Below, one piece after another: positions 13,655 through 17,649 of a DNA stretch of 64,000 nt. Each line of letters begins with the position of its first letter. The first letter of the stretch is position 1. The position numbers and the translations under genes were made by a program. The notes below the pieces were generated by a model. The model had not been told where the DNA came from and searched no databases. It saw only the letters and a program-made list of their open reading frames with translations. Origin of the DNA: an uncultured Acidobacteriota bacterium (GTDB lineage Bacteria; Acidobacteriota; UBA6911); contig CAWJKZ010000012.1 of assembly GCA_963843575.1 (NCBI GenBank), positions 64,001-128,000 on the forward strand. Direction: 5' to 3'.

Positions 13655-14962
13655 TCAGTCCGCAGGCAAAACGTCCATGAACGAAGAGACGGAAAACACA
13701 GCCCGCCCCAGCCCGGCTTCGCCGTAGCCCGGCATGGGGGGAAGGCGGTGTCGGGCGCGAGCGTTGCGGTACACACGCAGGAGCCGGACGTGGTACTCGA
13801 GCGGCGCCCCCTCCTGGTTCCTCCCAAGGACGCTGAGCGGCTCCGGGCACCACGTCGTGAACCGGGGGGACACGCCGTGGCTCATGAAGAAATCCAGGCC
13901 TTCGGAGGTGGAGGCGATCGCTTCGTCGACCGTGCCGAAACCATCGGGCGCCGCCATTTCAATCCCGGCGACGAAATTCGGGATGACCCTCGATGGTCCG
14001 AACACCGTCGCCGCGTCCAGGATGCGCCGGATCCATTCGTCGCGCCCGATGGTCCGCGCCTTACCCGCGCAGTAGATCTCAAACAACCGCTTGTCCCAGA
14101 TCTCGTAGTTCGGGTGATAGATCTGAACCCCGGCGTCCCGCAGCCGGTTCACCTGGTCCTTCGGCAGCGCCTGCACCACGACCTTGCTGATCCACCTGCG
14201 CGGGAAGCGCCTCTCGATCGCTTCGGGGTAGCGGGCGTAAAACTCCACTTCGGACTTGCCCTCGAGCGTCGCAGTGATGCTCCCGCCGGTGACCGTGTAC
14301 GCTTTGCTTTCGGAGTCGGTTTCCGAGATGATCTCGAGCGCCTCTACGATCTCCGCGACCGACTTCACCGAGGTGTACGGCCGGCCGGATAGTTTCTGCT
14401 GCCGGTAATTGGCATTGATGTCGCAAAACTGGCATTCCTCCCTGGCCCCGAAATACTGGCACAGGCGAAACGCCGTCAGGTAGAGGAGGTAGCCCCACTC
14501 GATCGTGGGAGCGATGTCCATGATGGGCTTCCCGCTGGCGAGGGTGCGCCCGTAATAGGCGGGGGAATTCTGCAGTTCCACGTCGGCGACGGCCTTGCCC
14601 TCGAGCTGGAGCCGCAGCGTTCCCTCCACGCACTCTATCCGGTACGGGGAGGCCGGGTTGAGCCGCACCGAGACGACCACCGGCTGAAAACGGAAGGGCC
14701 CGCCGACCAGACGGATTTCCTCGGGCGCGCTGTTGCTCTCGTCCTGTCCCATCTGCGCGATGGGCACCATGTCGAACGAAAAGATGAAGTAAGCCTTGCG
14801 CTTGAACCCTGCCGCCACCGCCAGCGCCTCACGCGACCAACCCATGCCGCGACGCAGCAAGTCTTCCTTGAATATCGCCTCAACCGGGATGTCGGGATAG
14901 CGTTCGGCCAGATCCTCGACAGCGGCCAGAGCCCCAATTTGCGGTTTAGAACCCGAGAGCAT
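13655..14962 (-). CDS. Radical SAM protein of unknown function, atypical Cx8Cx2C motif
   Basis: CQYFGAREECQFC, TVTGG, YHPNYEIWD. Confidence 0.85.
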   Translation of the reverse strand: MLSGSKPQIGALAAVEDLAERYPDIPVEAIFKEDLLRRGMGWSREALAVAAGFKRKAYFIFSFDMVPIAQMGQDESNSAPEEIRLVGGPFRFQPVVVSVRLNPASPYRIECVEGTLRLQLEGKAVADVELQNSPAYYGRTLASGKPIMDIAPTIEWGYLLYLTAFRLCQYFGAREECQFCDINANYRQQKLSGRPYTSVKSVAEIVEALEIISETDSESKAYTVTGGSITATLEGKSEVEFYARYPEAIERRFPRRWISKVVVQALPKDQVNRLRDAGVQIYHPNYEIWDKRLFEIYCAGKARTIGRDEWIRRILDAATVFGPSRVIPNFVAGIEMAAPDGFGTVDEAIASTSEGLDFFMSHGVSPRFTTWCPEPLSVLGRNQEGAPLEYHVRLLRVYRNARARHRLPPMPGYGEAGLGRAVFSVSSFMDVLPAD

Positions 14963-15093
14963 CTGGATAATCTAACATATCTGCGAAGTGCGGCGGCCCC
15001 AACCGGTTCTTTCGCGCATAACAAGGCGCAGCCCAAGTGAGTCAGGGCTGAAGAGGTTGTCCAACGGTTGAACCGCCCGCCCTGCCCGTAAAA

Positions 15094-15203
15094 CAAGTGG
15101 GGCCGGGCTTCAGCCCGGACGTCTTTTGATCTCATCTATGTGGCGACGGGCGCACGTTATAGCGACCGCAAACAGCGTCCGGGCTGAAGCCCGAACCCAC
15201 TTG
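15094..15203. repeat. REPIN (two inverted REP family 1 units)
   Basis: caagtggggccgggcttcagcccggacg ... cgtccgggctgaagcccgaacccacttg. Confidence 0.85.
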
Positions 15204-15227
15204 GGTTGAGGTGGGGCGGGAGTGGCT

Positions 15228-15578
15228 CTACAGGTCGTCAACGGGACCGTCAGCCGAGCCGGTGTCTGCTTCCTGGGCCGCCTCGTCCGCGAGCTGGTCG
15301 ATGTCCTCCCCCACGTCCTCGCCCATTTCCTTCCCCATCTTCTTCATCCACCGGGCCACGCTGGAGGGATCGTTCTCATCGAGGCCGGAGAAGCTGCCGG
15401 GATCGGCCAGCGACTCGAGCCGTTTTTCCTCGGACTTGGGCATGGCGAAACGCGAGAACAGCTGCTCGAGTTCGCGGCCCTGGCAATACTTGCAGCGCGG
15501 CTCGAAGGACGACGGGGTCAGGACCAGGAAACTCATTTTTCGCCGGCACGTCAGACAGCGGTATTCATAGATAGGCAT
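15228..15578 (-). CDS. FmdB family zinc-ribbon protein
   Basis: MPIYEYRCLTC...CKYC, acidic C-terminus. Confidence 0.88.
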   Translation of the reverse strand: MPIYEYRCLTCRRKMSFLVLTPSSFEPRCKYCQGRELEQLFSRFAMPKSEEKRLESLADPGSFSGLDENDPSSVARWMKKMGKEMGEDVGEDIDQLADEAAQEADTGSADGPVDDL

Positions 15579-15618
15579 CATCGCACCCTGTGAAAACGTG
15601 AGACTCGCACGCCGAAAC

Positions 15619-15861
15619 TCAGGCGGGGGGCGCGCCCTGGGCCGCGACCGCCTCGTCGATCTCCGCAGGATCGAAACCGACCAGTACCTTGTCGCCGATG
15701 ATAAGGGCCGGCGTGGCCATGATCTTCAGCCGCTGGAGTTCGCGGATGGCACCGGGCGTGGTGCGAATGTTGATTTCTTCGAACGGCACTCCTTTTTGCG
15801 ACAGATACTCCGTCGCGAGGTGGCAGGAGGGTCAGCCGGGTTGCGTGTATATCTTGACCAT
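15619..15861 (-). CDS. Glutaredoxin/NrdH-like selenoprotein (UxxC; TGA codon 10 = Sec)
   Basis: Read through TGA: MVKIYTQPGUPSCHLATEYLSQKGVPFEEINIRTTPGAIRELQRLKIMATPALIIGDKVLVGFDPAEIDEAVAAQGAPPA*; full Grx fold, GGAGG RBS. Confidence 0.88.
15798..15816 (-). promoter_or_regulatory. Putative bacterial SECIS hairpin
   Basis: mRNA GCGACGGA-GUA-UCUGUCGC: 8-bp stem starting 15 nt after UGA, apical loop containing G. Confidence 0.65.
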
Positions 15862-15898
15862 TCCCGAATCCTCCATTCGATGGGTACTCCCCGGCGGC

Positions 15899-15907
15899 AT
15901 TTTACCA
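15899..15907 (-). promoter_or_regulatory. Extended -10 promoter (TGGTAAAAT) for the glutaredoxin gene
   Basis: TGnTAAAAT match about 40 nt upstream of the ATG. Confidence 0.5.
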
Positions 15908-15925
15908 TGGGATTTCCGCCCGGGT

Positions 15926-16417
15926 TCAGTCCCGGCGCCTGTAGTTCCCGCTCTTCCCGCCGCTCTTGGCGCGCAGCCGGATCCGCTCGATGGAGGCGCC
16001 GCGTTCGACGGCCTTGACCATGTCATAGAGCGTCAGCGCGGCGACGGACACGGCGGTCAGCGCCTCCATCTCGGCGCCCGTCGGGCCATGGCAGGACACG
16101 GTAGACACGAACTTCACCCCGCGGGCCTGTGGCTCCGCCTGCACGTCTACGTGTGTCAAATGGAGGGGGTGACAAAGCGGGATGAGCTCGGACGCCCGCT
16201 TGGCGGCCATGATCCCCGCGAGCCGCGCCGTCTCGATCGCGTCCCCCTTGGGCAACCGTCCTCTGGCGACGAGCCTCAGGGTATCCGCCGAAAGGCGGAC
16301 GAAGCCCTCCGCGAGGGCGCGACGCGCGGTCGCCCCTTTTTCCGAAACGTCGACCATGTGCGCCCGGCCCTCCGCGTCGAGGTGGCTCAATGACTGCGAT
16401 GGCTTGCGTCTGCTCAT
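15926..16417 (-). CDS. moaC: Cyclic pyranopterin monophosphate synthase MoaC
   Basis: [42 protein letters not shown]. Confidence 0.96.
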
Positions 16418-16425
16418 AGGGTCGG

Positions 16426-17649
16426 TCACCCGCGCCGGCGCTGGAAAAAATCGGGGAGGAGCATGGCTTCCACGGTCTCGCCCTGATCCATCGAGGCCCG
16501 CTCGCCCGGGAAAATGACCGTGGCGTTGCCGCGCGCGAACCCGATGATGTCCCCCGATCCGCGCCACTTCACGGGGTCCACCGTCCAGGTATCCTTCTCG
16601 AGTGTGACCCACGCCGGCAGGAACGCGGTGCGGCCCGGGAGCTGTCGCATCCCGCGGGTCAGTGTCCCCCGGATTCTCGGCAGGTCCGGGTTGGCCAGGC
16701 CGCACAGCCGTCCAAGTGCCGGGCGGACGAAGTTCTCGAACGCGACGAAGGACGACACGGGATTGCCCGGCAGTCCGAACACCAGCTTACCCGTTGCGGT
16801 AGCGAAGACGGTCGGCTTCCCCGGTTTCATCGAGACCCGGTCGAAACGGATCTGCAGGCCGCACTCGGCAAAGGTGGCTTTGACCAGATCGTATTCTCCC
16901 ATCGACACGCCGCCGGTCGCCAGGAGGACGTCAGATTTCAGCCCCTCCTGGATCCGGGCGCGCAGGTGCTTCCGTTCGTCGCGGGCGATGCCGAGGTACT
17001 CGGGGCATATGCCCAGCGTGGCCAGCTGCCCGCGCAGCGAGAACGCATTCGAGTTCCGGATCTGCCCGGGCCCCGGGGTCTGCCCCGGCTCCACGAGCTC
17101 GTCTCCGGTCACGAGGACGGCCACCGTCGGACGCGCCCAGACGGGTACGCGCGCCCAGCCGAAGATCGCAAGGACAGCCATTTCGGCGGCGCCGATGATG
17201 CGCCCGGGCTCGATCAGGACGTCGCCTTCGAGGGCTTCGTGTCCTGCGGGCGTGACGTTGTCCCCGGGGGCCACGGCCTTCAGGATTACCACGGAGCCGG
17301 CCGCCTCCCCCGGCCGGGTCTGCTCGACCATCTGAACGGCGTCGGCGCCTTCGGGAACGGGTGCGCCCGTGTAGATCGCCATCGCCTCGCCCGCCGCCAC
17401 GGCCCGCGGCGGTTCCGTCCCGGCTCGCACCTCGCCGACGATACGGAGGGTGGCCGGGAGGACCGCGAGGTCTTCCGAGCGAAGCGCAAAACCGTCCATC
17501 GCCGAACGCCGGAATGGCGGCACATTCGACGTGGCGACGACGGACGTCGCCAGGACCCTGCCCGCGGCCTCCCGCAAGGGCACTTCCTCGAAACGGCGCT
17601 CCGGCAGGTTGCCGAGGACGATTTCCCTGGCCTGTTCGATCGTGATCAC
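16426..17649 (-). CDS. moeA: Molybdopterin molybdotransferase MoeA
   Basis: [44 protein letters not shown]. Confidence 0.95.

Follow-up and report, generated by a model that had tools for sequence, protein, structure and literature searches.

A glutaredoxin-like gene with a conserved in-frame UGA codon and bSECIS-type hairpin in a Methylomirabilota/Rokubacteria-like MAG, predicted to encode a selenoprotein

Thiol oxidoreductases with a UxxC redox motif are a known selenoprotein class, as an earlier note on the DNA analysed here had held. The glutaredoxin (Grx) family (PF00462), in its UxxC form, is listed among the experimentally verified selenoprotein families in Table 1 of a 2026 review by Zhang et al. 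(PMC13188914), and ten UXXC glutaredoxins are given in the Sargasso Sea study (PMC1088965). Methylomirabilota are described in the review as recently reported to have very large selenoproteomes (PMC13188914). Published work thus already covers the protein family and its motif, the way the codon is decoded, and the abundance of selenoproteins in Methylomirabilota, and the gene described here, referred to as Grx(U), leaves knowledge of selenocysteine (Sec) decoding and of glutaredoxins unchanged. It extends by one the selenoproteome of a lineage from soil/sediment with affinity to Methylomirabilota/Rokubacteria.

The closest characterised system is cGrx1 of Clostridium (Alkaliphilus) oremlandii (PDB entries 7C10, 7C12 and 7C13), which is described as naturally a selenoprotein, its active site being U(or C)PXC (PMC7642778). 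It was the best match of the Grx(U) protein in the PDB by sequence (7C10/7C12; E 4.2e-13, residues 2-73) and also the best structural match (7C10; TM 0.85/0.93, rmsd 1.0 A, 42% identity). The two proteins share the same short fold and length, an N-terminal Sec, predicted in Grx(U), as the first residue of U-P-x-C, V-G-F-D in the strand-4 region, and a Pro opposite the active site. They differ in origin, since cGrx1 belongs to Firmicutes and Grx(U) to a Methylomirabilota/Rokubacteria-like MAG, that is, to another phylum, and their gene neighbourhoods are also unlike. Moreover, cGrx1 is the proposed reductant of a Sec-containing MsrA, whereas msrA in the genome studied here lacks an in-frame stop and is of the Cys type. 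A tandem Sec-Grx/Sec-MsrA arrangement such as that in C. oremlandii is hence unsupported.

The Grx(U) gene is located on the minus strand of a 64,000-nt stretch of DNA, which was analysed as a whole and is referred to as the window (coordinates in Table 1). An 80-codon frame (15861-15622) encodes a glutaredoxin-fold protein, in which nine codons (M-V-K-I-Y-T-Q-P-G) precede an in-frame TGA, P-S-C-H comes next, and the C-terminus reads ...GAPPA-stop. Re-reading of the minus strand bore out the description in the earlier note of an ATG at 15861, a GGAGG, an in-frame TGA at 15834-15832 and 70 further open codons between that TGA and the stop. The gene had been missed by the ORF track, as also remarked there, and the ORF lister does break the frame at the TGA, leaving two pieces (15619-15789 and 15832-16026). 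Purine-rich GGAG/GAGG-like motifs occur 5' of the start codons in most homologues. Further upstream, the sequence of the proposed extended -10 element, TGGTAAAAT, is present, and a similar motif (TGnTAnAAT / TAnACT-like) is found upstream of the start in 7/7 loci of the same taxonomic family, whereas a two-hexamer promoter scan of 15100-16100 yielded no site. Judged by this motif, TGGTAAAAT may be the promoter of the Grx(U) gene.

Table 1. Features of the Grx(U) locus and of the frameshifted selenium genes (positions are those of the window unless preceded by a contig of the own assembly, G000)
Feature	Position	Strand	Remarks
Glutaredoxin-like selenoprotein CDS (predicted), 80 residues	15619..15861	-	ATG 15861-15859, Sec codon 10, TGA stop 15621-15619
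In-frame UGA, predicted Sec (U10 of U-P-S-C)	15832..15834	-	TGA in 12 of 13 full-length homologues and in two public contigs
bSECIS-type hairpin, 8-bp stem, GUA apical loop, UGA-to-loop 23 nt	15798..15816	-	Fold and comparison
GGAGG, putative ribosome-binding site	15870..15874	-	8 nt 5' of ATG; function predicted
TGGTAAAAT, possible extended -10 promoter element	15899..15907	-	Candidate from motif
FmdB-family zinc-ribbon gene, 117 aa	15228..15581	-	TIGR02605, 35.4 bits, over cut-off; Pfam Zn_ribbon_8
Radical SAM protein gene, NF045502 'variant_rSAM'	13655..14962	-	168.7 bits versus cut-off 125
MoaC	about 15926-16400 of ORF 15926-16705	-	NCBIfam MoaC, 214 bits
MoeA	16426-17649	-	NCBIfam MoeA-type models, 322-347 bits
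selD	G000 C13:704799-705723 (L010/L011)		Two pieces, one frameshift near C13:705250
selA	G000 C8:2469-3523 (L028-L034)		At least five pieces, alternating frames without stops; on 17-kb contig

Read through the TGA, the protein belongs to the Pfam glutaredoxin family (PF00462; 48 bits against a cut-off of 22.9, E 1.4e-12, profile positions 1-59 of 60). An AF2/AlphaFold model (pLDDT 93.7) has the b-a-b-a-b-b-a order of short glutaredoxins, with U10-P-S-C13 at the N-terminus of helix 1 (residues 11-22) and the codons before the TGA forming strand 1. The invariant T50-P51, a putative cis-Pro motif, is present. The protein thus has both features expected for PF00462, a redox motif where helix 1 begins and the Pro that is conserved in the cis-Pro loop.

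Assignment to narrower families gave a different picture. The best NCBIfam model was TIGR02196 (YruB), which aligned over protein residues 1-72 and profile positions 1-73 of 74; at 77.3 bits, below the curated cut-off of 88.55, the protein is a non-member by the NCBI rule, and the YruB family is defined on Cys forms. The second-best match, NF041212 (Uxx-star), has the glutaredoxin-like scaffold and selenocysteine in common with the window protein, but scored 59.2 bits against a cut-off of 66 (profile positions 1-65 of 70). Its C-terminal U-x-x-stop is unmatched in the window protein, where Sec is instead predicted in the N-terminal redox motif. NrdH-redoxin and Bacillus cereus BC3987, the next-best PDB matches after cGrx1, have the same fold (3zij/3zit, 4hs1, 1h75 and 4fiw, TM 0.81-0.87), although identity is 23-32% and the score against TIGR02194 is 50.1 bits, short of the cut-off of 85.75. 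No ribonucleotide-reductase context was seen around the Grx(U) gene in the window. By these cut-offs, the protein falls in none of the narrower NCBIfam families YruB, Uxx-star and NrdH.

We compared the gene with its relatives, which are from Methylomirabilota/Rokubacteria MAGs. When 137 genomes from its class were searched in six frames, 11 matched at E<=1e-8, with the genome studied here among them. Exactly one TGA lay within the match in nine of the ten non-self matches, and none in the tenth. Wherever it occurred, the TGA opened the redox motif (YTQPG-U-PSC, U-PAC, U-AGC, U-PVC, U-AAC, U-MPC, U-PYC); the exception, genome G004, has TGC (C-AAC). Three more loci with TGA (...YTNVG-U-GPC), from Methylomirabilota/Rokuibacteriota MAGs, came from scanning named genome records. 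The other three of the six loci in that scan (L059-L061, Casimicrobiaceae) were unrelated ABC-ATPase-like matches and were dropped. In total, the aligned codon is TGA in 12 and TGC in one of 13 full-length homologues from other genomes, a count that omits a remote Cys glutaredoxin (G033/L023; WCPDC, 45% identity over 40 residues, E 2.1e-8) and becomes 12 of 14 when this is included. The expectation in the earlier note that homologues would have Cys or Sec at position 10 was realised, and both the Pfam match and the homologue alignment place the TGA on the first Cys of the CxxC motif, as it had proposed. In 10 sequences compared, U(C)10, C13 and P51 do not vary. One Sec-Grx copy (genome G008, C38:457-680, L021/L024) shifts from one frame to another after residue 50, reflecting either an assembly indel or a decaying copy.

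Of these homologues, the Rokubacterial Grx-like selenoproteins found by the scan (L056-L058) provide a close comparison. They are 52-55% identical to the window protein and share with it the position of the TGA, and their hairpin (GCGACAGA-GUA-UCUGUCGC) is nearly identical and equally spaced, but they have U-G-P-C as their motif rather than U-P-S-C. They also differ in what follows, as a gene resembling the catalytic subunit of ferredoxin:thioredoxin reductase (FTR; PF02943) begins within about 20 nt downstream in these loci, and an FmdB zinc-ribbon gene takes that place in the window.

The same-genus copy differs from the window at 35 nt, of which 24 are third positions, and the codon changes comprise 22 synonymous and eight non-synonymous, with the TGA kept. 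Divergence is dominated by synonymous changes on both sides of the TGA, and the in-frame UGA is aligned with Cys or Sec, as expected of a selenoprotein gene. The pattern of substitutions thus shows coding constraint on either side of the TGA.

Public annotation presents these genes differently. Six close database relatives comprise two full-length Cys forms and four calls of 55-69 aa that start just past the Sec codon. A profile search of 1.84 billion representatives returned 15,673 relatives at E<=0.001, and 90 representatives of <=115 aa were listed, of which 81 have the motif as CxxC and two as CxxS, while six are truncated just past the first position of the motif and one has W there. Sec forms are thus few, and mis-called, within a large family of Cys proteins. 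In the representative with W at the Sec/Cys position (P0077, 96 aa; …STDT-W-PHC…), the gene call had probably taken TGA for Trp, which would be another route to mis-annotation. The chief value of the present locus is therefore in annotation correction, as calls cut at the UGA drop the active-site half of the protein from catalogues.

Such calls are also what would be seen if the TGA were a true stop at codon 10, or the gene a pseudogene, so that the product was a short peptide or a re-initiated protein truncated at its N-terminus. Gene finders call the downstream part only, and truncated calls recur in the relatives just described (four of six, and six of 90). These calls, however, begin at varied, non-conserved Met/Val/Leu codons. 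Conservation extends to the nine codons 5' of the TGA (…YTQPG-TGA), which encode strand 1, and a truncated product would miss both this strand and the attacking residue. Moreover, the TGA has stayed in place although synonymous sites have changed. We consider the chance of truncation or decay to be slim, and favour a full-length protein translated through the UGA.

The quality of the assembly also bears on whether the TGA is real. The own assembly (G000; 27 contigs, 6.68 Mb, 88% complete) has several genes split between frames without stops, namely rpoC in three frames (C24:257298-261310, loci L052-L055), selA in at least five pieces, selD in two, and msrA in two (C27:20915-21371, L062/L063). 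The assembly is clearly indel-rich as a whole, and frameshifts in this genome deserve distrust. A TGA seen in one assembly hence needed outside support, which came from public short-read contigs of two studies, X1 and X4, both of which read TGA at 15834-15832. Contig X1 shows no difference from the window over 340 nt (15726-16065), and may derive from the source sample of the window and so perhaps be non-independent; X4 is for this reason taken as the independent contig. It has six differences from the window over 352 nt (15594-15945), and none of the five differences listed is at the TGA codon. Four are in the CDS, one before and three after the TGA, and all four are synonymous third-position changes. 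The TGA could in principle be an assembly or sequencing error for TGC or TGT, of the sort that an error-prone, indel-rich long-read MAG might contain, and the earlier note had named such codons in raw reads as evidence against its reading. Nonetheless, the assembly errors seen are frameshifts, with no substitutions, and the 80-codon frame of Grx(U) is intact. Furthermore, 12 independent assemblies share TGA at the same codon, and X4, from another study, retains it while differing at six other bases. The probability of an erroneous TGA is accordingly negligible for practical purposes, and we treat the codon as genuine.

A hairpin (GCGACGGA / GUA / UCUGUCGC, 15816-15798) starts 15 nt past the TGA, within the coding region, in agreement with the earlier description of this site. 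The rules for bSECIS elements as set out in section 5 and the Fig. 2 legend of the review (loop of 3-9 nt with G in its first two positions, upper stem of 4-16 bp, UGA-to-loop distance of 16-37 nt, MFE <= -7.5 kcal/mol; PMC13188914) were applied with our own script. The window hairpin satisfies every rule (GUA loop, 8 bp, 23 nt spacing, -10.4 kcal/mol for the hairpin alone). The local fold of the window sequence (-21.2 kcal/mol, z -1.97) was equalled by six of 200 shuffles. A single-sequence fold this modestly above chance is suggestive, not decisive, and it is the comparison across genomes that carries the argument. A permissive Rfam scan of 15500-16000 gave no bacterial SECIS match, and returned a chance lncRNA alone (E 0.39, 17 bits versus a cut-off of 80).

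Among 13 Sec forms, 10 have an uninterrupted stem of 6-9 bp with a G-first loop of 3-5 nt at a UGA distance of 22-23 nt. A single A.G mismatch interrupts this hairpin in two others, and the hairpin of the remaining form is weak. No hairpin qualifying under the bSECIS rules was found in the Cys form (G004). This clean Sec/Cys pair, with the hairpin present in one and absent in the other, would be useful for training selenoprotein predictors. When 10 Sec forms were aligned, leaving out the three MAG loci, 91.3% of 80 cells were paired, compared with 35-61% when the partner strand is slid, and the observed pairing was reached by one of 500 shuffles. A compensatory swap from C-G to A-U occurs in four sequences, at the single stem pair with a two-sided change. 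Part of the hairpin conservation reflects protein constraint, because the stem overlaps the conserved A-T/K-E-Y/F-L-S codons.

Genes for decoding UGA as Sec were also found in the genome. A tRNA-Sec with anticodon TCA was identified by ARAGORN and Rfam (C10:613966-614063, 74.6 bits) and is the sole tRNA found with this anticodon; a second Rfam match to tRNA-Sec proved to be tRNA-Ser(TGA). A full-length, intact selB is present (C14:820069-821952, 373 bits versus a cut-off of 242), such that tRNA-Sec and SelB, which a selenoprotein gene calls for, occur together in the genome. Of the other TGA-bearing genomes, seven out of nine have selB, as does the Cys-form genome; at E<=1e-60 it was not found in G011 (86% complete, 860 contigs) or G105 (91% complete, 700 contigs). 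The proposal that the organism encodes selABCD was accordingly upheld for tRNA-Sec and selB, and selA (summed score of the pieces about 316 bits) and selD are present as well, but both are frameshifted in the assembly. At face value, these frameshifts could mean a decaying Sec system. Since the essential rpoC is also split into three frames, the most likely cause is indel error in the assembly, not decay. The selD gene has an active-site TGA of its own (...SCAG-TGA-ASK). Elsewhere in the genome, TGA serves as a gene end, as in the Grx(U) gene itself and moaC. A search of the genome for a formate dehydrogenase selenoprotein found none, with weak partial matches to TIGR01553.

The conserved TGA, the hairpin, the decoding genes and the independent contig support the view, put forward in the earlier note, that this is a real selenoprotein. 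We conclude that Grx(U) is very probably a small thioredoxin-fold thiol/selenol-disulfide oxidoreductase (glutaredoxin/NrdH/YruB type) in which UGA-10 is decoded as Sec via SelB and the hairpin. An alternative is that the UGA is translated with another residue, either Cys through a SelB-dependent non-canonical tRNA or Trp, Cys or Arg through near-cognate read-through. There are precedents in other bacteria for SelB-dependent insertion of Cys at Sec codons, selA and selD appear broken in the assembly, and the inserted residue is not decidable from sequence alone. Set against this, the only TCA-anticodon tRNA has Sec architecture, selA and selD are present with frameshifts that fit the genome-wide artefact, and selD itself requires Sec decoding. 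Furthermore, the native protein of the closest characterised relative, cGrx1, contains Sec (PMC7642778). We regard a non-Sec residue as very unlikely and retain Sec as the predicted residue.

In the proposed mechanism, SelB would bind the hairpin within the CDS and deliver Sec-tRNA(Sec) to UGA-10, which would be decoded by this tRNA. The U10 selenolate would then attack disulfides or sulfenic acids of a substrate, C13 would resolve the intermediate to give a selenenylsulfide, and this would be reduced by an upstream reductase. As the reductant, a thioredoxin-reductase-like donor is more probable than glutathione. A donor of this type is favoured because gshB (TIGR01380) was not found in the own 88%-complete genome, and because the nearest structural relatives beyond cGrx1 are thioredoxin-reductase-dependent. 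The sister forms adjoin a ferredoxin:thioredoxin-reductase-like gene. This gene is directly downstream of the U-G-P-C Grx in 3/3 Methylomirabilota/Rokuibacteriota MAG loci, and the two likely represent a dedicated reductase-substrate pair. The FTR-like genes (L056:3226-3642, L057:1649-2080 and L058:3236-3640) have the PF02943 pattern CPC...CAC...CHC. A tblastn search of the own 88%-complete genome found no FTR-like gene.

The neighbourhood of Grx(U) raises the question of its partners. Gene order on the minus strand is Lon-like protease, MoeA, MoaC, Grx(U), FmdB zinc ribbon, NF045502 radical SAM, Fpg and HflX. MoeA and/or MoaC are upstream of the Grx gene in 5/6 same-family loci. The FmdB gene is 37 nt downstream of Grx(U), with which it is possibly co-transcribed, and directly follows the Grx gene in 6/6 same-family loci (73-92% identity). 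The radical SAM gene, for which no Pfam match was obtained at E 1e-4, is present in three of the four same-family loci that reach far enough (74-89% identity). Genes linked to the Mo cofactor adjoin Sec-Grx genes in other settings too, including Oxidored_molyb (L025:2022-3068), MOSC/YiiM (L027:1811-2329) and MOSC (L057:508-1389), in addition to MoaC and MoeA in the window (15926-17649). Their occurrence beside distant Sec forms hints at a selenol reductant for molybdoenzymes or for Mo-cofactor maturation, although recurrence in unlike neighbourhoods could be chance. It is conceivable, if improbable, that Sec-Grx is the dedicated electron donor of the MoeA-MoaC-Grx(U)-FmdB-radical SAM string and not a general redox buffer. 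If so, the Sec-Grx of the sister clade could be fed by the FTR-like reductase.

Some minor observations concern the downstream genes. Across the family, the FmdB and radical SAM proteins are more conserved than Grx. An ORF of 166 aa (14635-15135, minus strand) was rejected as a gene, as it had no family match and runs, in a different frame, across the beginning of the radical SAM gene. It is probably an artefact, or else marks an indel near the 5' end of that gene. FmdB-family proteins are listed elsewhere as a UxxU selenoprotein family. In the FmdB protein of the window, all four positions are Cys.
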